Of a stretch of DNA of 64,000 nucleotides, positions 1,468-59,280 are shown in pieces (positions within the stretch are counted from its first letter, which is position 1; each line of letters begins with the position of its first letter). Origin of the DNA: a phage. The stretch lies in sequence record PZ151149.1; one strand, written 5' to 3'. The position numbers were made by a program, and so were the translations under genes. The notes below the pieces were generated by a model. It was given only the letters and a program-made list of their open reading frames with translations, did not search any database and was not told the DNA's origin.

Positions 1468-1806
1468 TTATTCTCCTTTCTTGAACAAATTGCGAAGCCA
1501 GTATACAAACGGGATTTCTTTAAACTTGAATTTCTCTATAGTTAATTCTTTAGTAGCAAGATGAATACCATAAGAATCATGTGTCACGATATGCCATTTT
1601 CTATAGTCCAAATGTGAACAACCATTTGAATCTAGGTTAATAATAGTTTCTCGCTCACTAGGATTGTTTTTCCACGATTTTGTAATCGGATCGCACATAA
1701 TTCGACCTAGCGTACCATGAATAATCTCGCATTTGTAAACCTTTCCGGCAGTGATATAAGCGCAACCGTCATAGTCGGTATAAACAAACACTTCTTTAAC
1801 ACTCAT
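1468..1806 (-). CDS. hypothetical protein (112 aa), member of small tandem paralog group
   Basis: ATG at 1806 with AGGAG RBS, preceded by conserved promoter-leader module; shares CSHLD..W motif with next two ORFs. Confidence 0.5.
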   Translation of the reverse strand: MSVKEVFVYTDYDGCAYITAGKVYKCEIIHGTLGRIMCDPITKSWKNNPSERETIINLDSNGCSHLDYRKWHIVTHDSYGIHLATKELTIEKFKFKEIPFVYWLRNLFKKGE

Positions 1807-1837
1807 TTTAATACTCCTTTGTAGTTTCGATGGGGGT

Positions 1838-1866
1838 ATATTACTACCCCCGTTTTGACGTGTCAA
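1838..1866 (-). promoter_or_regulatory. early promoter-leader module copy 1 (TTGACA-N17-TAATAT)
   Basis: Consensus hexamers, 17-nt spacer, leader ACCCCCATCGAAAC then AGGAG. Confidence 0.6.
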
Positions 1867-2112
1867 CTACTTTTTCAAGAATTTTTTGAGTACATTCCAA
1901 AGACCTTTATTCTCGGCTTGTTTTGGTTCTTCGATCAGTGTCCATGTTCGACCGTCTAAGTGTGCACAATTTTTAAGGCAAATAAAAATCTGGTGTCCCT
2001 TATCATCACGGATATAACCACTATTCGCAAATCTTTCATGTGGTGTATATTCATACAGTGTATTCGGTGTAATATACTTGCGGTTACTATAAGGTGTCGT
2101 TACATATTTCAT
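1867..2112 (-). CDS. hypothetical protein (81 aa), tandem paralog
   Basis: ORF; motif Y.TP...GYI.DD.G..I...L..C.HLDG..W shared with 2109..2303. Confidence 0.45.
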   Translation of the reverse strand: MKYVTTPYSNRKYITPNTLYEYTPHERFANSGYIRDDKGHQIFICLKNCAHLDGRTWTLIEEPKQAENKGLWNVLKKFLKK

Positions 2113-7460: not shown

Positions 7461-7502
7461 TTTGATACTCCTTAGTAGTTCGTGTTTCGTTTCGATGGGT
7501 GT

Positions 7503-7531
7503 ATTATGATATACACCCTATCGTGTGTCAA
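7503..7531 (-). promoter_or_regulatory. early promoter-leader module copy 2 (TTGACA-N17-CATAAT)
   Basis: Consensus hexamers plus leader ACACCCATCGAAACGAAACAC. Confidence 0.6.
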
Positions 7532-7539
7532 CAACTTTT

Positions 7540-7728
7540 TTAGTCTTTTTTCATAATTTCTAGGGCAGTTTCTACCGCACCTTTCCAACCTTCCCACATA
7601 ATGGACATAGTGATGAAGGTAAAGCACCCGCAGGAATCAGCCTTTTTAGAAATAAACCATTCTACAAACTCTTCGCTCATACCATGCTCTTTAGCGGATT
7701 CGCGTAATTGTTCAATTTTGTCTTCCAT
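7540..7728 (-). CDS. hypothetical protein (62 aa)
   Basis: ORF. Confidence 0.4.
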   Translation of the reverse strand: MEDKIEQLRESAKEHGMSEEFVEWFISKKADSCGCFTFITMSIMWEGWKGAVETALEIMKKD

Positions 7729-8417: not shown

Positions 8418-8463
8418 AATTTGATTCTCCGTTTAAGAAAGTGTGTTTCGTTTCGATGGGTGT

Positions 8464-8492
8464 ATTATGCTATAGGCGGGGTCTGGTGTCAA
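8464..8492 (-). promoter_or_regulatory. early promoter-leader module copy 4 (TTGACA-N17-CATAAT)
   Basis: Consensus hexamers plus leader ACACCCATCGAAACGAAACACAC. Confidence 0.6.
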
Positions 8493-8520
8493 CAACTTTT
8501 TTCAAAAAAATTTAGGCAAT

Positions 8521-8548
8521 AAAAAAGCCACTCCGAAGAGTGGCTTAT
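8521..8548 (-). terminator. rho-independent terminator
   Basis: Hairpin AGCCACTC-TTCG-GAGTGGCT then TTTTTT on minus strand. Confidence 0.65.
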
Positions 8549-8695
8549 AGGGGAAGGTAGCGAATCTTCCTTGTCTCCAACCTGCTAGCGGCCTAGCAAG
8601 TGAATGCTTTAGCGTACCGGATCACCCCATACGCTGCAATAAATGCGGCTAGGTGACGTCCAAATCATTCTAACCGCGCTGTCTTTAGTTCACTA

Positions 8696-9817: not shown

Positions 9818-9976
9818 TTATTTGCTAATCGCTAAACCTAATCCGAAGAGAGCACCCGACGCTACAGTATACCCGAAAGTTTCAAATGCAGTAAAGATAT
9901 CTAAGCCACCAGCTAACAGAGTTGCAGTAAACAGAGTACCAGCTACGAACATAAAAGTTTTACCGATAAATTTCAT
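9818..9976 (-). CDS. small membrane protein (52 aa)
   Basis: Minus-strand ORF MKFIGKTFMFVAGTLF... with GGAG RBS and promoter-leader module; below track size cutoff. Confidence 0.4.
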   Translation of the reverse strand: MKFIGKTFMFVAGTLFTATLLAGGLDIFTAFETFGYTVASGALFGLGLAISK

Positions 9977-10007
9977 CTTGATTCTCCTTTCGTTTGTTTG
10001 TGGGGGT

Positions 10008-10036
10008 ATCTTACTACCCCCGTTTCATGTTGTCAA
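10008..10036 (-). promoter_or_regulatory. early promoter-leader module copy 5 (TTGACA-N17-TAAGAT)
   Basis: Consensus hexamers plus leader ACCCCCACAAACAAACGAAAGGAG. Confidence 0.55.
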
Positions 10037-10042
10037 CTGTTT

Positions 10043-10420
10043 TTAAGAAAATTTTACTTCGTCTACAATGTCTTTCATGACATTGATTTCCATTCCGGTC
10101 AGAACACGTTGGAACATGTGCTGCACATACGCTTTCAGGTATTCATTTGATGGCTTACTATCGAAAGTCTTTTTAGTGTAGTAGTCATCACCGAAAGCTA
10201 CTGTAATTACATTTTCGTCGTCGTTCCAAGCGATATAAGCAAATTTGCCGTTATCCCAGAAGCGAGCACTAATTGCTACTTTTGTTGAATCGAATCCTAC
10301 TTCGCTGTGAGATTCAAGAACTACTTGCGTACCAGTTTCTTTATGAATGTAGTAGCGGGATACTAAGTCAAAGTTACGGGTGTAGTGACATTCGAATTTA
10401 TCTTTAAACATCATCATCAT
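10043..10420 (-). CDS. hypothetical protein (125 aa)
   Basis: ORF from ATG at 10420 with GGAG RBS downstream of promoter module; track ORF start lies inside the promoter. Confidence 0.5.
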   Translation of the reverse strand: MMMMFKDKFECHYTRNFDLVSRYYIHKETGTQVVLESHSEVGFDSTKVAISARFWDNGKFAYIAWNDDENVITVAFGDDYYTKKTFDSKPSNEYLKAYVQHMFQRVLTGMEINVMKDIVDEVKFS

Positions 10421-10457
10421 TTTGATTCTCCTAAGTGTGTTTCGTTTCGATATGTGC

Positions 10458-10486
10458 ATTATGCTATAGTCGTTTATGGTTGTCAA
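10458..10486 (-). promoter_or_regulatory. early promoter-leader module copy 6 (TTGACA-N17-CATAAT)
   Basis: Consensus hexamers plus leader ATCGAAACGAAACACAC. Confidence 0.6.
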
Positions 10487-10488
10487 CA

Positions 10489-10521
10489 ACTAAAAACAAA
10501 AAACCCCGAAAAATTTTCGGG
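10489..10521 (-). terminator. rho-independent terminator after the 57B-position gene
   Basis: Hairpin CCCCGAAAA-TTTTCGGGG followed by TTTTTTGTTTTT on minus strand. Confidence 0.6.
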
Positions 10522-12552: not shown

Positions 12553-12582
12553 TACGATTCCTTAAATGAAAATATTTATCAA

Positions 12583-13116
12583 CTAAAAATTTAAACTAGC
12601 ATAATCTCCAAAATGTTCCTTTGCTGCTTCGTCATAAGCCTTTGCAGCATCAACTTCGTCAAGAAAGACGCCCAAATGGACCTTTCTACGATTGATTGAT
12701 ATCTGAGCACACCATTTGTTATTCTGTGTTCTAATCACTCCTTTATACTTACTCTTACAACCATCAAGTTTTCCGCGATTGAATGCATTTTCCTGAGAAG
12801 TGGATTCTCTCAAGTTATCCGGTGCATTATTTTCTCGGTTTCTATCTATATGGTCGATCATTTTAACTTGCGTACCATGTTCAAGATACCAAACAACCCT
12901 ATGAACTTTAATGACCAAAGAATAGCCATCACTGCGCCAAAACTTAAAACATAGATAACCTCGACTATTTTTATAAACTTTAACCGGGTCTCCTGCCTTA
13001 TACCATCGACCATTCTTTCCACTATCTTTCAAATGGTACAATATACCATTAACGTGTTTATACTTATCTCTAATTTCTTTTTGTGTAAAATCATCCCACA
13101 TCTTAAACCCAGACAT
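12583..13116 (-). CDS. HNH homing endonuclease with C-terminal AP2 DNA-binding domain
   Basis: HNH motif IDHIDRNRENNAPDNLRESTSQENAFN; AP2-like YKGVIRTQNNKWCAQISINRRKVHLGVFLDEVDAAKAYDEAA; inserted between genes 3 and 2. Confidence 0.7.
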   Translation of the reverse strand: MSGFKMWDDFTQKEIRDKYKHVNGILYHLKDSGKNGRWYKAGDPVKVYKNSRGYLCFKFWRSDGYSLVIKVHRVVWYLEHGTQVKMIDHIDRNRENNAPDNLRESTSQENAFNRGKLDGCKSKYKGVIRTQNNKWCAQISINRRKVHLGVFLDEVDAAKAYDEAAKEHFGDYASLNF

Positions 13117-13152
13117 ACATTTTCTCCTGATAATATTATTAATAACAACATC

Positions 13153-13182
13153 AATCTAACATATCTAGTATATAATGTCAAT
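13153..13182 (-). promoter_or_regulatory. possible sigma70-like promoter (TTGACA-N18-TAGATT) for the AP2-HNH gene
   Basis: Hexamers on minus strand; 18-nt spacer. Confidence 0.35.
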
Positions 13183-13232
13183 TGTCGCTTTGCGACGTGC
13201 CGTAGGCACTGACTACTTTTTAACCGAAACAA

Positions 13233-13267
13233 ATTTTCTATATTCTAAAGATCTTTCTTCGTTTTGG
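13233..13267. repeat. intergenic repeat copy A (ATTTTCTATATTCTAAAGATCTTTCTTCGTTTTGG)
   Basis: About 33 of 35 nt identical to 50186..50220; contains palindrome AAAGATCTTT. Confidence 0.6.
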
Positions 13268-13336
13268 TTATGTTTTAACCAATAACTATATTTTTATACA
13301 GTAATAAATAAAACTGGTACTATACGAGGACTTCTT

Positions 13337-13591
13337 ATGACAGAAGACATTTTGTTAAAACTCTATGATCGTTTGGATAACGAATTAGCAACATTGCGGG
13401 GTGAAGTTCTCTATTTGTCTAAATGCAATACAGATCTGATTAAGCAGATTGCCGAAAGGGATGACCAAATAAAATCCCTTTCAGGCGCATTACGTGATCG
13501 CGACAAGGCATTAGAGATTTTACAGCGTGTAACCAATAAAGAAGAGTTGAAAGACTTTCTACATGGTTATGCTCACGCCATCGATCTATAA
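13337..13591 (+). CDS. hypothetical coiled-coil protein (84 aa)
   Basis: ORF with GAGGA RBS; heptad-like charged sequence; followed by strong terminator. Confidence 0.5.
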   Translation: MTEDILLKLYDRLDNELATLRGEVLYLSKCNTDLIKQIAERDDQIKSLSGALRDRDKALEILQRVTNKEELKDFLHGYAHAIDL

Positions 13592-13592
13592 T

Positions 13593-13622
13593 AAAAAGCC
13601 CGTCAATGACGGGCTTAATTTT
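13593..13622. terminator. bidirectional rho-independent terminator
   Basis: Hairpin AGCCCGTC-AATG-ACGGGCT flanked by A-run and T-rich run; convergent genes on both sides. Confidence 0.6.
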
Positions 13623-14649
13623 AATATGTATCAGCTAATTTAATTATGTTATCAAGTTCCGTGATTGGTAAAGTTTCTGTGTATCCATCTTTCAACATGG
13701 ATTTATCAACAACGCCACAATGATAAGTTCTCTTTATTTCCTTTTCAAGTTCCCACGGAATCCAGCCATCAACACTTTGTTTGACGTAAACAAGTTTGTG
13801 AACAAACTTAGATTTCTGCATATGTTGTTTCATTCTGGTTTCCGGTAATTCATTGGTTACACCAAACTTTATAAATTTATCATCTAACGTCTGGATATAA
13901 AAATATCCCATCTCAGATGGACGATAGCCAGAAGAACTACATTTCGGACACCCTTTAGCATTTCTGTTGAACGTACAATATCTTACAGAAAATTCGGCGT
14001 CATGTTTTGTACATTTAAGTTTTATCCATGAATTTGCAGTACCTATCCATTCACCATCGACACCTATATATTCATACCCTAACTTTTTACATTTATCTTC
14101 TATTCTAGATAGTGCATCTTCCACGGGAACGACATATTCCGTCTTAAATTGTTCAGCCGCACATTTCTTACAACCACATGTACCATGATTTTTAAAATCA
14201 AAGAACTTTGTATTCTTCCAAATATGGTCATGTTTCTTGCATCTAAGAATCATCTTAGTAATTTGTGATTTCCAGCCACCAACAAATCCCAAAAATTCAT
14301 AATCAAGATCTTTACATTTTTCTTCAATGAATTTGGTTGCTTCATCTTCTGTCATAACTCCCCTACATTGAGGGCAACCAACAATAACCTTTTTAGCATA
14401 GAAACTATTACTGGAAACATCATAGACAGTTCCATGCTTATTGCATTGGATAACAGATCTAGTCAATTTTCCTTTCCATTCTCCAGTAAATCCTAAGAAT
14501 GTATGGTCGACAAGTTTACATCTTTCAATAACTTTATCTGCAAACTCTCTAGGAGATTTTGTTACCTTGTTTACTCTGTATTCTATTTCTTCCGGTTGAC
14601 GAAGATCATAAACGTGGGGATTTCTCCCCACGGAATTAATATTAAGCAT
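13621..14649 (-). CDS. putative endonuclease-like protein: three tandem Cys-containing repeats plus C-terminal GIY-YIG-like (T5orf172-like) motif
   Basis: Three roughly 85-aa repeats each with FLGF.GEWKG...C.KH...W...GC..C pattern; C-terminal GYFYIQ...KFGVT...R..H resembles a GIY-YIG core; ATG at 14649 just after gene 2 stop. Confidence 0.5.
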   Translation of the reverse strand: MLNINSVGRNPHVYDLRQPEEIEYRVNKVTKSPREFADKVIERCKLVDHTFLGFTGEWKGKLTRSVIQCNKHGTVYDVSSNSFYAKKVIVGCPQCRGVMTEDEATKFIEEKCKDLDYEFLGFVGGWKSQITKMILRCKKHDHIWKNTKFFDFKNHGTCGCKKCAAEQFKTEYVVPVEDALSRIEDKCKKLGYEYIGVDGEWIGTANSWIKLKCTKHDAEFSVRYCTFNRNAKGCPKCSSSGYRPSEMGYFYIQTLDDKFIKFGVTNELPETRMKQHMQKSKFVHKLVYVKQSVDGWIPWELEKEIKRTYHCGVVDKSMLKDGYTETLPITELDNIIKLADTY

Positions 14650-15463
14650 CTTTCCACACCTTCCTTGCATCATAGTTTTTACCTTTAGAAACAAATTTAT
14701 ATGTGTTAAGGTAGATAATATTGCTCCAGTCTTTCGGGCTAATCTCAACAAGTTTTGTTTTAATGTGTCCCGGTAGATATGCTTTGATCATGTGGTCACT
14801 ACCACGCATACCTTTTACATCACTCCATTTAATCTTCAAGCGTGTTTTATTGCTCAAGGTAGGAGTAGATGCATATTGCTTTAAAAGTGCTTCCAGAAAC
14901 TGCTGACGGGCTTTAGGCGTTACATAGTGTAAGTTAAGACCCAGCATTACAGTATTACCCGCCTTTGTCTTAGAATCACCCAGACAAATGATCAGCGGGA
15001 AAACATCCCAATATGGCAAAGTATCTTTATACTTCGCATCATACATAAAGGTATAGATTCGCCCTACTTGCGGTTTTACAATCTGGTGTCCCTTTATTCC
15101 AGCTTTTATTGTTTTAGTAAACCACTCCTGTGATTTTTCTTTAGGACGACTCTTTGATACAGCACGCATAGACGCACGAAAATCATTAATCATCATCATT
15201 GCGCGTTGCTGCTTATTGAGACCCTTTGCACCTTTCCCTTTTAGTTTTTCAACTTCTATTGCTGTTTTAATTTCGCTGGCATAACGAGACATACTTTTAG
15301 TGAAAGTCGCATAGGCTATTCCCTTAGAATCTGCAAATGCTTTAGCTGTCATTCCTTTGGCTTTTGCTTTCGCAAATTCTACACCCAATTCGACCCACTG
15401 TTTAGACTTTCGCTTTTGGGGAGACGGCTTTTCGTCTTCTGTGATTATTTCAAATACGCTCAT
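14642..15463 (-). CDS. 2: DNA end protector protein gp2
   Basis: 273 aa from ATG at 15463 (T4 gp2 is 274 aa); basic N-terminus; position between gene 3 side and gene 4 as in T4. Confidence 0.7.
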   Translation of the reverse strand: MSVFEIITEDEKPSPQKRKSKQWVELGVEFAKAKAKGMTAKAFADSKGIAYATFTKSMSRYASEIKTAIEVEKLKGKGAKGLNKQQRAMMMINDFRASMRAVSKSRPKEKSQEWFTKTIKAGIKGHQIVKPQVGRIYTFMYDAKYKDTLPYWDVFPLIICLGDSKTKAGNTVMLGLNLHYVTPKARQQFLEALLKQYASTPTLSNKTRLKIKWSDVKGMRGSDHMIKAYLPGHIKTKLVEISPKDWSNIIYLNTYKFVSKGKNYDARKVWKDA

Positions 15464-49320: not shown

Positions 49321-49907
49321 CTAAATATCTAACCAAGACAAGTCAGATCCGCCCAAGATTTTTTCGACGGCGGATCTATTTTCTTGATGATATAAGTTAA
49401 AACATGGTATCCCATGTCTACGGGCAACATAAACAGCAATTCTAGTTCCTCCCGAAACGATTCCATTAACTTCTTTCGCCCAAAATAACACACAATCTAC
49501 AGGATCATCAAGTGTCTCACCTAAGACTTGAGCAACATTTCTAGAAAACAGATTTTGCATGTATAACGGTATAGAACGAGGATTATCATAAACGTGTTCT
49601 AATTCATCCATCGCCAGATTTTTTGTTCTAAGGTTTGCCATGCAATAACATCATGACCGTTATGCTTGTGGTCATAAAACTTCCAATTTGGAATGAAAAT
49701 TTTTCTATAATCTGGATCGTAATACTTCATGAAAGCATTGTCCATACCGTAAGCCCCTCCAGAATGCGCTACAACGCGATTTTCTGACAATACCCTCCCA
49801 ATGGTACTAGCCATTATCAAAATGTCGCTAGGCGCTTTTCTAGAGCCTATTAAAGCACATCTACGAAGTGGTTTTACTCCAAATAGATCTTGTAACTGGT
49901 CAAACAT
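49321..49907 (-). CDS. DprA/Smf-like Rossmann-fold protein, split into two overlapping reading frames at an A6 run (frameshifted, possibly pseudogene)
   Basis: N half ALIGSRKAPSDI...AHSGGAYGMDNAF and C half IVSGGTRIAVYVARRHGIPCFNL together resemble one DprA/Smf-type domain; track ORFs 49599..49907 and 49321..49641 overlap around AACAAAAAATC. Confidence 0.45.
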
Positions 49908-50044
49908 AATATTTCCTCCATAGAAAGCAATATCATACTACAAGTTAATAACAAATACAAGTATCCGCGTAGCGGAAGCGAGCACAGCGAGCAATAAAAC
50001 ACTTCCAGTAATTGATTAATAAATGTTCGAAACAAATTTTTATT

Positions 50045-50100
50045 ATTCTATAAGATAAGTCTTCGTTTTGATCATAATTTAATCATACATGTAAAAACTA
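50045..50100. repeat. intergenic repeat copy C (core CTTCGTTTTGATCATAATTTAATCA)
   Basis: 25-nt core identical to 50210..50234; 149 bp spacing. Confidence 0.6.
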
Positions 50101-50185
50101 CACAAAAGGATATCGCTTCGCGAACTCCTACGGAGTATAACATTTGTGTTACAATATGTAGTGAGTAATAATTAACCAAAGATAC

Positions 50186-50245
50186 ATTTTCTATGTTCTA
50201 AAGATCTTTCTTCGTTTTGATCATAATTTAATCAAACAGTATTAA
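50186..50245. repeat. intergenic repeat copy B (ATTTTCTATGTTCTAAAGATCTTTCTTCGTTTTGATCATAATTTAATCA)
   Basis: Combines the copy A segment and the copy C core. Confidence 0.6.
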
Positions 50246-50286
50246 TATTGTGCACATGTAAACTAAAATTATGTTAATAACATATA

Positions 50287-50313
50287 CAAAAAAGCCGCCC
50301 AGAAGGACGGCTA
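50287..50313 (-). terminator. rho-independent terminator after 50321..50758
   Basis: Hairpin AGCCGTCC-TTCT-GGGCGGCT then TTTTTT on minus strand. Confidence 0.6.
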
Positions 50314-50320
50314 ATGTTAA

Positions 50321-50758
50321 TTATTTGTTGATAACGATCTGATTTCGGCGAATGGTAACATTACTCTTAGAGATGATCAGATCATCCGGCACGACGTTAG
50401 TTTTGTATGGTTGGAAGCGAACAAGCATCTGATTGCGTTTAGACCCTTCCTTAATCTTGATCTCCATCTGGATATTGTTGCCTACGTGAGCAACCGCAAT
50501 TTCACCTTTATTCTCATAGACCCACTTGATGGTAACGTCTCCAGCAAAAGCCTTAATAACTTGCAATGCTTCGTCGTATGCGGTAGAGCTGTGAACTTTC
50601 AGAAGTCCAGCCGTAGCAAGACGGGAGCAGGTGATCGCCGGAGATTGCCAAACATCAACATTAATTTGCTCAATCAGAGTAACACCGCCCTGATCAACTG
50701 CTTTGAATGCTTCGAACATTGCCTTTTTCATTGCTACGTGGTTTTTACGGAATTTCAT
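50321..50758 (-). CDS. hypothetical protein (145 aa)
   Basis: ORF; followed by rho-independent terminator. Confidence 0.5.
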   Translation of the reverse strand: MKFRKNHVAMKKAMFEAFKAVDQGGVTLIEQINVDVWQSPAITCSRLATAGLLKVHSSTAYDEALQVIKAFAGDVTIKWVYENKGEIAVAHVGNNIQMEIKIKEGSKRNQMLVRFQPYKTNVVPDDLIISKSNVTIRRNQIVINK

Positions 50759-51403: not shown

Positions 51404-51431
51404 ATTATAGGCATCTAAATAGCTCTGTCAA
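51404..51431 (-). promoter_or_regulatory. sigma70-like promoter (TTGACA-N16-TATAAT) for the module downstream of hoc
   Basis: Consensus hexamers on minus strand right after the hoc terminator. Confidence 0.55.
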
Positions 51432-51451
51432 GCACTAAAAACAAAAAAGCC

Positions 51452-51476
51452 ACCCCGAAGGATGGCTGATAGATTT
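51452..51476 (-). terminator. rho-independent terminator after hoc
   Basis: Hairpin AGCCATCC-TTCG-GGGTGGCT then TTTTTTGTTTTT on minus strand. Confidence 0.65.
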
Positions 51477-56722: not shown

Positions 56723-57352
56723 TCAAAGAATTTTAAGGAAACTGGATAGACCTGATAATGAATATACACCAGATTCCCCGCATTCGCACTTGATCGGTAC
56801 TGCCAGCGTGATTTGATTTCTTGTTAGCTCGTCGATCACTTCTTCCACTTTATCCGTGGTAAGCATATCCAGCACGCGGTCAAAGTCCTGTGCGTTCAGG
56901 TCGTCTATATTGAATTGCTGATCGCCGATCACGATATATTCGATACATGCAATTACCATCTGCATAATATCAACATCTTCTGTAAACTTAGGTTGACGAA
57001 ATTTGATTTTTACTTGTCCTAAGTCCAGAATATACGGTTCAACTTCTGGTATCTGTGTGCGTGAAACATCAAGAGAGTATACTTTCTCTTTATTGCATAC
57101 ACCACACACCCAAGTAGCATCAATTTTCATCTTATTGAGGCTGTGACACCATAAGAGAAGAAAAATATATTCTGCTTCGCATTTCTCTAGCTCTAATGCA
57201 TTGATCCCCGTACATTCATGTATGATCTTTATAACAACCTCTGACAGCTTGCCAGTCTCTTTTGCTGCTACCAGTTTTTGAAATTCGCCGAAGGTGAAAG
57301 CACGGGCGTGTATCAACTTTTCGCCTAATTGGATCTTGAAAAAGTATTGCAT
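56723..57352 (-). CDS. 26: baseplate hub protein gp26
   Basis: Synteny, 209 aa (T4 208). Confidence 0.85.
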   Translation of the reverse strand: MQYFFKIQLGEKLIHARAFTFGEFQKLVAAKETGKLSEVVIKIIHECTGINALELEKCEAEYIFLLLWCHSLNKMKIDATWVCGVCNKEKVYSLDVSRTQIPEVEPYILDLGQVKIKFRQPKFTEDVDIMQMVIACIEYIVIGDQQFNIDDLNAQDFDRVLDMLTTDKVEEVIDELTRNQITLAVPIKCECGESGVYSLSGLSSFLKIL

Positions 57353-58193: not shown

Positions 58194-59280
58194 TGTCTCA
58201 ATAAAACTTTATCAGGATTATGAGGCATTTCTAAATCATCGCTTTATAGAATTGGGTGCTACCTTTGTTACAATGACTCTGCGTGATTCGATTCGTGGGG
58301 TGAACGAAGGATTGTTGCAATTCTATGATAATAAGGCGATGCATACAAAATTAAATGGACGAGAGATCATTCAGATTTCGCTATCCACTGCTAATACAGA
58401 TGAAGTGTTTAACCGAATCTATGGGATCTCTCATAGTAATGTAACGATTGACCAAAAATCTGACAACATTTTAACATTCCAGTTAAAGAGCTATCACGAA
58501 ACACTAAACCTTAAATTTTCTCGCTCATTAACAAATAACGCTGTTAATAACGTAACTAGCATGATCGATGCCATCTATAAGGAAGTTCCTTTATGGAAAC
58601 CTACTATAAAGGGTGATAACGTTGTTATTCCTCGTTGTCCGTGGGTTAGTACCATAAATGACTATATGGATTTTGTTAGGGCATACGGGCAAAGCGTAGA
58701 AACCGAGTCTTTCGTGTATTGCTGGGAAGATTTTGATGGTATAACGATCGCTGGACACGATACAATATTAAAAAATGAGCCAATACCAGCTATAATCTGT
58801 GAGCCTAGACTCATGGGGCAATTTATTGATATGTCGCCTAATCTGATGGTTTTTAATTTCGAGTGGCAGACTAAGAGCAATGCTAAAGTTAAAAATTCAT
58901 TTAGCAATGTGACATACACAACTATTGATTTTGTTACTAAGCAGTATAATAAAATTGTTGTTGGTAATGGGGATAATATTGCACACTTTGCTCATGGTGG
59001 CGCTTATGGTAATTTAACTTATAAGAATGCGTTTTTGGAAGGTTCTAAACTTGCCACAATAGAACAATATGATTCATATGCTACCGCAGTGTGTCACGGT
59101 AATTTTTCGTTGCGACCCGGTATTGTTATTCGATTCTTTGATGAGAAGCAACAAGCACGCAATGATTTTATTGTTGACGAAGTGGTGCATGAAATTAGCC
59201 GAGAGCAATCATTAACTCACCTGTATATGATCGGTAACAGCGAAGAATTACAGGAAGTCAAATTTGAAGGTAAGATATAA
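58171..59280 (+). CDS. 27: baseplate hub protein gp27
   Basis: Synteny, size 369 aa. Confidence 0.85.
   Translation: MQRTGFPNVSIKLYQDYEAFLNHRFIELGATFVTMTLRDSIRGVNEGLLQFYDNKAMHTKLNGREIIQISLSTANTDEVFNRIYGISHSNVTIDQKSDNILTFQLKSYHETLNLKFSRSLTNNAVNNVTSMIDAIYKEVPLWKPTIKGDNVVIPRCPWVSTINDYMDFVRAYGQSVETESFVYCWEDFDGITIAGHDTILKNEPIPAIICEPRLMGQFIDMSPNLMVFNFEWQTKSNAKVKNSFSNVTYTTIDFVTKQYNKIVVGNGDNIAHFAHGGAYGNLTYKNAFLEGSKLATIEQYDSYATAVCHGNFSLRPGIVIRFFDEKQQARNDFIVDEVVHEISREQSLTHLYMIGNSEELQEVKFEGKI

Follow-up and report, generated by a model that had tools for sequence, protein, structure and literature searches.

A composite non-coding cassette repeated at gene boundaries of Krischvirus genomes and carried by an Escherichia coli prophage, with a tentative role in local control and recombination

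The repeated non-coding DNA already described in the phages RB49 and Phi1 consists of the promoter-early stem-loops (PeSLs), which were presented as 'mobile regulatory cassettes' and counted at 52 in Phi1 by Arbiol et al. 2010 (PMC2839356), and which were defined for RB49/Phi1 by Comeau et al. 2014 (PMC4122927) as a near-perfect TTGACA-N17-TATAAT joined to a Gn-loop-Cn stem. RB49 itself is MotA-less and without a middle-promoter consensus, and an A at the first position is tolerated in its late promoters (PMC1524935). The present analysis deals with another repeated element, found in a stretch of 64,000 nucleotides of phage DNA (sequence record PZ151149.1, hereafter the window), for which a first-pass annotation had reported a 35-nt intergenic repeat at 13233-13267 and 50186-50220. 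The window belongs to Krischvirus (the RB49/Phi1/JSE group of T4-type coliphages), and the 59 phage records that both loci match, with 92-99% identity, are Krischvirus without exception. The 35 matching bases form the core of a composite non-coding cassette of ~110-125 bp, which is present in the Krischvirus genome as four copies at three loci, upstream of gp3 (copy A), of open reading frame (ORF) 164 (copies B and C in tandem) and of gp36 (copy D), respectively. The cassette is tentatively read, with a probability of roughly 0.35, as a cis-acting DNA module for control and insulation at transcription-unit boundaries, probably a protein-binding dyad array, that would also provide homology for recombination.

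By direct reading, 33 of the 35 bases are identical between 13233-13267 and 50186-50220. The inner 33-mer of the first stretch was matched at the second locus with 1 mismatch, and 0 matches were obtained in 100 dinucleotide-preserving shuffles of the window. The similarity is far above that of shuffled sequence, which disposes of AT-rich composition as its source, a doubt that the first-pass annotation had itself raised; chance likeness of two 35-nt stretches was rejected on these shuffles together with a profile search. The ungapped similarity of copies A and B is longer than 35 nt (57 nt, 84% identity), and in the search with a three-copy profile by nhmmer, 13216-13290 (copy A, E = 5e-19), 50168-50245 (copy B, E = 1e-18) and 50019-50095 (copy C, E = 9e-17) were recovered with similarity over about 75-80 nt per copy, the next-best match in the window having E = 1.7. 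Copy C, which lies 149 nt to the left of copy B, is the tandem copy already claimed for the second locus; it is more diverged, with 28-33 of the 44 core columns in common with the other copies and a degenerate central dyad (TAAGATAAGT). All three copies are intergenic, as had been stated. In the window, the neighbours of copy A are a minus-strand HNH-AP2 endonuclease gene (12583-13116) and, on the plus strand, the small ORF130 (13337-13591); copies B and C occupy the gap between two minus-strand genes, ORF165 (50321-50758) and the DprA-like ORF164, which starts at 49907.

The whole Phi1 genome was used as the reference for the loci. There, gp3 and the small plus-strand ORF130 flank copy A, and ORF165 and the DprA-like ORF164 flank copies B and C. 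The genome-wide profile search of Phi1, by which the earlier proposal to look for further copies was carried out, gave copy D, which is inverted and lies outside the window between g35 and g36. The statement that the element adjoins inserted non-T4 genes was right for copy A and for copies B and C; copy D stands between the core tail-fibre genes 35 and 36. The element is found in 59 of 59 Krischvirus records, at 3-4 places in each. As a separate observation, ORF164 is one gene of 588 nt in Phi1 and appears in the window as two overlapping ORFs on the minus strand (49599-49907 and 49321-49641), the split being either a frameshift or a sequencing error.

The cassette consists of an AT-rich imperfect palindrome of ~75-85 bp, centred on the palindrome AAAGATCTTT, and two adjacent GC mini-hairpins of 4-5 bp. 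In copy A, the core extends over 13210..13290 with the central palindrome at 13247-13256, and includes AACCGAAAC at 13222-13230, ATTCTA (TAGAAT on the minus strand) at 13242-13247, GTTTTGGTT at 13261-13269, and an inverted repeat formed by TTGGTT at 13264-13269 and AACCAA at 13277-13282; its tandem mini-hairpins, GTCGC-TTT-GCGAC and GTGCC-GTA-GGCAC, were read in the sequence at 13184..13209 and were predicted to fold on both strands. In copy B, the core extends over 50163..50245 with the central dyad at 50200-50209, the inverted repeat is formed by TTGAT at 50217-50221 and ATCAA at 50231-50235, and the tandem mini-hairpins TCGC-TTC-GCGA and CTCC-TAC-GGAG lie at 50113..50135. In copy C, the core with its degenerate dyad extends over 50013..50095, and the segment at 49964..49992 holds only one hairpin, TCCGC-GTA-GCGGA (49964-49976), with a direct repeat of GCGAGC after it. 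In the direction of the adjacent genes, which is that of the window minus strand for copies A, B and C, the unit starts with the terminator of the preceding gene (copies B and D) and an inverted repeat, TTGGTT-N7-AACCAA or TTGAT-N9-ATCAA, and goes on with CAAAACGAAGAAAGATCTTTAGAAT, 30-60 nt of AT-rich DNA, the two GC hairpins with their 3-nt loops, and the promoter and Shine-Dalgarno (SD) region of the next gene. With stems of at least 4 bp, loops of 3-4 nt and a spacing of at most 4 nt as the definition of tandem mini-hairpins, only 3 tandem GC pairs were found in Phi1 (164 kb), every one of them next to a copy of the element; the mini-hairpins therefore belong to the unit. The earlier description was thus of a real element but covered only one third of it, the hairpins, the overall palindrome and the fourth copy being left out. 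Short ORFs are present in some copies and are in another frame or absent in others, and a small peptide ORF was rejected accordingly. The mini-hairpins were likewise rejected as intrinsic terminators, since they have no U-tract and only the terminators of neighbouring genes were marked by the terminator scan.

Within the core, the distal AACCGAAAC and the proximal AACCAA are each complementary to GTTTTGGTT. In an alignment of 15 distinct variants, both inverted-repeat pairings are kept in 81-87% of the cells, as against 23-58% with the partner slid; for one covarying pair, A:T was counted 8 times, G:C 5 times and G:T 2 times, and for the other, CG 6 times, AU 5 times and GC once. This covariation lends support to a maintained pairing, short of proof, as the 15 variants stem from few independent lineages. 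Folding against shuffled sequence gave z = -3.1 and -3.4 for the two strands of copy A, and copies B and C and a prophage copy (described below) gave unremarkable z-scores from -0.3 to -2.2. A small RNA gene or a structured leader or antisense RNA, either a minus-strand transcript that would run from TAGAAT to the two hairpins or a plus-strand RNA with two helices competing for GGTT, would suit the better folding of copy A on both strands, the two mutually exclusive helices that use the same GGTT segment, and the C(UUCG)G loops that the two left hairpins of the prophage copy show on the plus strand. It is nevertheless quite improbable: the other copies fold unremarkably, the part conserved between lineages would lie upstream of the putative minus-strand start and hence outside the RNA, and neither U-tracts at the hairpins nor a supported promoter were found. 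A known Rfam family was rejected for want of any match at the gathering score in the B/C locus or the prophage region; with Rfam 15, the best matches at the B/C locus fell on the ORF165 terminator (E = 0.45-10, 11-18 bits as against gathering scores of 47-111), and the matches overlapping the element in the prophage region were sub-threshold (16-25 bits as against 36-81) and from unrelated families.

The position of the cassette relative to genes is regular. Taken in the direction of the adjacent gene, each copy precedes a start codon by 70-190 nt and adjoins a promoter or an SD region, and copies B and D follow directly on the intrinsic terminator of the preceding gene. For copy B this is the ORF165 terminator at 50293..50312 (minus strand), directly upstream of the copy on the gene strand. 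The homology of copies A and D extends past the core and takes in the hairpins, a late promoter (A/T)ATAAATA and the SD sequence TTTGAGG of gp3 and gp36, respectively. In the comparison of Phi1 with G2248 at locus D, the coding flanks g35 and g36 are 89-92% identical, the core is 94.7% identical, and 81 nt with the hairpins, the late promoter and the SD sequence are 100% identical; the element is better conserved than the genes that flank it. The earlier suggestion of a shared regulatory site gains from the promoter and SD adjacency, from the conservation above coding DNA and from the covarying inverted repeats, and such a site may act on transcription. A late-promoter-like motif TTGATAAATATTTT, also read as GATAAATA, was located directly before gp3 at 12565..12578 (minus strand) by comparison with Phi1, and an RB49-type late-promoter motif AATAAATA lies at 13303..13310 (plus strand), 27 nt upstream of the ORF130 start codon. 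Separately, it was observed that similar intrinsic terminators, AAAAAAGCC(A/G)C(C/T)C(C/A)GAAGG(A/G)(T/C)GGCT, occur at 8518-8550, 50285-50317 and 51440-51472.

Promoters inside the element were searched with a sigma-70 position weight matrix, with five classic PeSLs in the first 10.5 kb of the window (1803-1885, 7478-7548, 8439-8509, 9973-10055 and 10433-10503, all on the minus strand) as the positive controls. These PeSLs, which have TTGACA-17-(C/T)A..AT, stems of G/C runs and a common CGAAACGAAAC leader, scored 12.9-13.6, whereas the maximum of copy A was 9.1 (plus strand, top 0.15% of genome positions) and those of the other copies were 4-7.5. No -35/-10 hexamer pair is conserved in position across the copies, TAGAAT on the minus strand being the only conserved hexamer and having no -35 box, and no promoter was found inside any core by the consensus scan. 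A canonical sigma-70 promoter was therefore rejected for either strand, both scans being negative. At 51431 and 50860 (minus strand), near hoc, two further near-consensus promoters were noted.

The element is intergenic, lies directly upstream of an ORF with an SD sequence and follows the previous stop codon, as PeSLs do, and an association with indels or replacements may show in the breakpoints of locus A (~13179 and ~13623) and in the junctions of the record LF73P4; yet copies B and C are syntenic in 59 of 59 records and copy D in 58 of 59. A Gn-loop-Cn stem, which in PeSLs lies within the promoter or overlaps it and works as a terminator or attenuator, is absent at the element, whose stems (GTCGC/GCGAC, GTGCC/GGCAC, TCGC/GCGA, CTCC/GGAG and TCCGC/GCGGA) have 3-nt loops and stand outside the core, at a distance of 25-60 nt. 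With nhmmer, no similarity of sequence to PeSLs was found (best E = 0.78). The element is not a PeSL, being set apart from them by the published definition and by the five PeSLs of the window. An atypical or degenerate cassette of PeSL type, with a host-RNA-polymerase promoter joined to stem-loops, is a possible but doubtful alternative. On the minus strand, TAGAAT would be its -10 box, with an activator using the conserved CAAAACGAAGA at -32 to -22 instead of a -35 box; in a plus-strand version, ORF130 would be transcribed from TTGGTT-17-TATATT. Copies A, C and D and the prophage copy have retained TAGAAT (TAGAAC in copy B), indels gather just downstream of it, where a promoter tolerates them, the plus-strand score of copy A is high for the genome, and PeSLs are known from exactly these phages, a few of their copies being in virion modules (PMC2839356). 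Against such a promoter, besides the scans, TAGAAT is lost by a 17 nt deletion in the prophage variant L168 with the rest kept, and the spacing between the two minus-strand motifs varies (3, 12 and 16 nt) among three related prophage sites. ORF130, for its part, has a late-promoter motif of its own, the stems are not of the Gn-loop-Cn type, and Krischvirus is without MotA and AsiA; neither motA nor asiA was found in Phi1, and no Mot box lies upstream of TAGAAT there.

A wider search gave a second carrier. In INPHARED, the element was found in Krischvirus only. A pattern scan of IMG/VR returned ~25 contigs of about 17-45 kb with a full-length match, and these contigs are an uncharacterised prophage of ~35-38 kb inserted in ycdX, which is present in 53-57 of 5,426 complete E. 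coli genomes (~1%). This prophage is without a near relative in culture; its portal protein has a best identity of 38% to any sequenced phage, and no DNA match of the prophage region was found in INPHARED or PLSDB. Among GTDB species representatives, 0 matches were obtained with the strict pattern and 120 chance matches with a looser one, of which 0 were confirmed by nhmmer; in the metagenome scan, the element was seen only in the Krischvirus and ycdX-prophage families.

The prophage has a 1.4 kb non-coding control region between divergent operons (L018 3112-4500; L042, NZ_CP018840, 19813-21201), and the element occurs once per prophage, where this region ends on the right, ~115 nt upstream of the first rightward gene. 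The control region holds ~9 TTTTTGCCCCTGAAA iterons and several ACTAGATGATTCTAGA-type repeats, and of three related sites in it (ATTCTAGA... CACTTTGAAGAT...), the prophage core is the third; alignment scores for a second copy of the element in the region were at background, short related motifs recurring there. The left flank of the element has two C(UUCG)G hairpins and the right flank a hairpin with the compensatory variants GGCGAAGCC, GGGCTTTGCCC, GGGCTATGCCC and GGGCTTTAGCCC. The prophage copy has 38-39 of the 44 core columns in common with copy A or B, and copies A and B have 38 of 44 in common with each other. As an observation of its own, a motif TTATAAATAATAGTGA without a -35 box, which includes the T4 late-promoter octamer TATAAATA, precedes at least 4 early-region genes of the prophage by 30-90 nt, on both strands (L042 17101, 17931, 19874 and 21149; also 19518 and 19932), and is either a coincidence or a special promoter class.

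The two carriers have a gp37-like long-tail-fibre gene in common (42% amino acid identity over 922 amino acids; L042 32019-35540 and Phi1 151643-154585), together with several short matches, among them L042 37017-37050 and Phi1 100296-100328 (34 nt, 97%, just after the tail-tube gene), L042 25934-25989 and Phi1 75928-75983 (56 nt, 87.5%), and L042 23171-23194 and Phi1 58420-58443 (24 nt, 100%). These short, mostly intergenic stretches suggest repeated recombination between the prophage and Krischvirus lineages. The Phi1 stretch at 100296-100328 appears to correspond to the terminator at 51440-51472, the third of the family given above. No regulator gene common to both carriers was found by tblastx and blastp, the shared sequences being only the tail-fibre genes and a 28-amino-acid C-terminal tail that is probably incidental, and the small ORFs flanking the element had no Pfam or PHROGs match.

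Rearranged records bear on the role of the element in recombination. In LF73P4 (OZ035795.1), gp3 is joined via one copy of the module to inverted g35, and inverted g36 via another copy to ORF130, the junctions lying at 56743-56851 and ~141391-141500. The switch point falls within 24 nt that are identical in the hairpin regions of copies A and D, and the arrangement is the expected product of an exchange between these inverted copies. LF73P4 has a further rearrangement, by way of classic PeSLs (37.7-39.8 kb and 82.9-83.2 kb), and represents either a real double inversion or a misassembly, as an alternative path in the same repeat graph. The records kvi (MN850615), Skers (MW748999) and pEJ01 (OP114734) start at the same base beside copy A, 36 nt upstream of ORF130 (window ~13301), and the kvi record is without gp3 and part of gp1. 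Because pEJ01 is a SPAdes short-read assembly, the common start is probably a contig break at the repeat, and a physical genome end beside copy A was rejected. The option of a recombination site, offered in the first-pass annotation, is favoured by the LF73P4 junctions inside copies A and D, by a breakpoint at the edge of copy A and by the carriage of the element in an unrelated prophage, and recombination in vivo may be what these features record.

The same records would suit a miniature palindromic repeat that is selfish or neutral, comparable to MITE, ERIC or Correia elements. Such a repeat would have moved about in and among the phages of E. coli, and its importance would lie mainly in offering homology for recombination and in disturbing assembly. 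The unit as a whole is an imperfect palindrome of about 85-125 bp, intergenic and in several copies, and two mobile genomes of one host carry it although they are unrelated; copies A and B are as near to the prophage copy as they are to each other, rearrangement junctions and contig ends fall at the copies, and copy A has been displaced without apparent harm. The terminal inverted repeats expected of a MITE are present, in that the whole core is an imperfect palindrome. This origin of the element is nonetheless unlikely, with no more than four copies, which keep to the same three loci in 59 of 59 genomes, conservation above that of the flanking genes, a regular position relative to terminators and promoters, no associated transposase and no visible target-site duplication; none of the 59 Krischvirus records has an empty site by which the boundaries of the element or any such duplication could be defined.

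To a similar degree it is doubtful that the element is a replication-origin-like element or priming signal, with an AT-rich unwinding region, iteron-like half-sites and stable single-stranded DNA hairpins in place of MotA-dependent origins. Only three loci per genome carry this AT-rich, dyad-symmetric and strongly conserved DNA, the gene downstream differs by locus, the G:T wobbles favour a structure of one strand, the prophage element stands beside its iterons, and Krischvirus has no MotA. Many of the hairpin loops are of the form C(GNA)G (GAA or GTA), and loops of the d(GCGAAGC) type form extra-stable DNA mini-hairpins in the origins of G4 and phiX174. A common origin core is, however, unexpected in carriers with unrelated replication machinery, inspection by eye of the sequences read showed no DnaA boxes, and the positions of T4 oriE, oriF and oriG presumably do not coincide with the loci of the element.

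The third option offered at first, an endonuclease target, did not hold, as homing endonuclease genes adjoin only locus A and are absent at B/C in 59 of 59 records and at D in 58 of 59. At locus A of the window, a cassette with an HNH_3 and AP2 homing endonuclease (12583-13181 with its promoter) lies between copy A and gp3, and it was found in only two other records (AV108 and phiS). Its edge lies ~5 nt from the hairpins of copy A, at a mosaic breakpoint of ~13179. The gene has a near-consensus sigma-70 promoter, TTGACA-17-TAGATT, at 13153..13181 (minus strand), of which the TTG is supplied by the junction of the copy A flank and the insertion, and the cassette parts copy A from GATAAATA, which remains beside gp3. 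No record covers the whole query at this locus, the breakpoints being ~13179 and ~13623. ORF130.1 (13621-14751, minus strand), which is present in only part of the genus between ORF130 and gp2, encodes 376 amino acids with two CapR-homology domains and is labelled 'endonuclease' in RefSeq Phi1 and ECD7; its breakpoint at ~13623 lies at a bidirectional terminator (13596-13616). That the element is the recognition or cleavage site of an adjacent homing endonuclease would fit the flanking of copy A by the HNH-AP2 gene and the CapR-domain endonuclease-like gene, as well as the rarity of the HNH cassette and its edge near the hairpins. It is very improbable all the same, since, apart from the other loci, the element is unchanged in genomes with or without either endonuclease gene and the prophage copy has no endonuclease neighbour.

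In the preferred reading as a control and insulator module, the TTTYGRTYA-like half-sites around the central dyad would form a binding or bending platform for a dimeric factor, acting as duplex DNA. The cassette, placed at the upstream edge of units after the preceding terminator and before the promoter and SD sequence of gp3, ORF164 and gp36, would modulate or insulate the adjacent promoter, and the hairpins would damp transcription that enters from outside. The binding factor would most likely be host-encoded, because the two carrier lineages have no detectable regulator gene in common. As repeated homologous DNA, the cassette could also be a recombination substrate, which would explain its spread to four places of the genome and to the prophage as well as the junctions inside it.

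Several results weigh against the control module. The HNH cassette displaces copy A by 0.6 kb from the gp3 late promoter in the window, apparently without harm, so that any effect on gp3 would not be distance-critical. No late promoter was found at ORF164, the gene downstream of copies B and C, and the probability that three independent loci share their orientation relative to genes by chance is ~0.25. All G:T wobbles (12 cells) are on the window plus strand, as is more usual for a folded single strand, RNA or DNA, than for a duplex site, and the mini-hairpins, without a U-tract, would be weak terminators at best. The IHF consensus WATCAANNNNTTR (at most 1 mismatch, background 1.9 per kb) is not conserved across the copies, and no other E. 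coli factor site was recognised in the element.

A more far-reaching proposal, which is also unlikely, is that the element is a functional cis-element exchanged horizontally between a virulent T4-type genus and an unrelated temperate prophage of the host that both have in common, and used by both, for example a host-factor platform or an origin-like primer or unwinding element replacing MotA-dependent origins, and that the inverted copies A and D flip a segment of ~87 kb into isomers as in LF73P4. A non-coding cassette common to phage lineages, and a possible inversion of an 87 kb segment, would be unexpected for a specialist. 'Mobile regulatory cassettes' were first defined on RB49-like phages, and the element would be a second, structurally different family in the same genomes. 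It sits in conserved late and virion regions rather than in hyperplastic regions, and it is the first such family shown, by this analysis, in a non-T4 prophage with a gp37-like gene and at the same level of divergence. If binding of a host factor or a replication start were true, the element would offer a route into late-region expression or the origins of MotA-less T4-type phages; if it provides recombination homology only, it would account for misassembled genomes, broken contigs and possible inversions among therapeutic Krischvirus phages.

Among known systems, the operator and iteron arrays of temperate phages resemble the element in their dyad-symmetric repeated half-sites, the prophage core being one of three related sites beside iterons, and they differ in that a virulent T4-type phage has no immunity region and the two carriers have no common regulator gene. 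T4 oriF and oriG are likewise few per genome, intergenic and in or near late regions, with a -10-like hexamer followed by 30-60 nt of AT-rich DNA, but the T4 origins need MotA-type middle promoters, which Krischvirus lacks, and neither similarity nor orthologous positions link them to the element. With ERIC/IRU, Correia/NEMIS and RIP/BIME repeats, the element has in common a length of ~100 bp, an imperfect palindrome, an intergenic place and dispersed copies able to mediate rearrangements, and with RIP/BIME also the GC hairpins that flank an AT-rich centre; it differs in its very low copy number, fixed loci and phage carriers, without an IHF consensus, sequence similarity or a visible mobility signature. 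The PeSLs are found in the same phage genus and are likewise repeated intergenic cassettes of ~100 bp, with AT-rich DNA and stem-loops just upstream of an SD-bearing ORF, and the element may be tied to indel or rearrangement points as PeSLs are, the latter having been proposed to spread and to shuffle genes by homologous recombination. Compared with them, the element has two separate triloop hairpins of 4-5 bp and mixed GC outside a core that is a long imperfect palindrome, is present in 4 copies per genome as against about 50 PeSLs, lies in late and virion regions whereas PeSLs lie in hyperplastic regions, and is carried by a non-T4 prophage as well.

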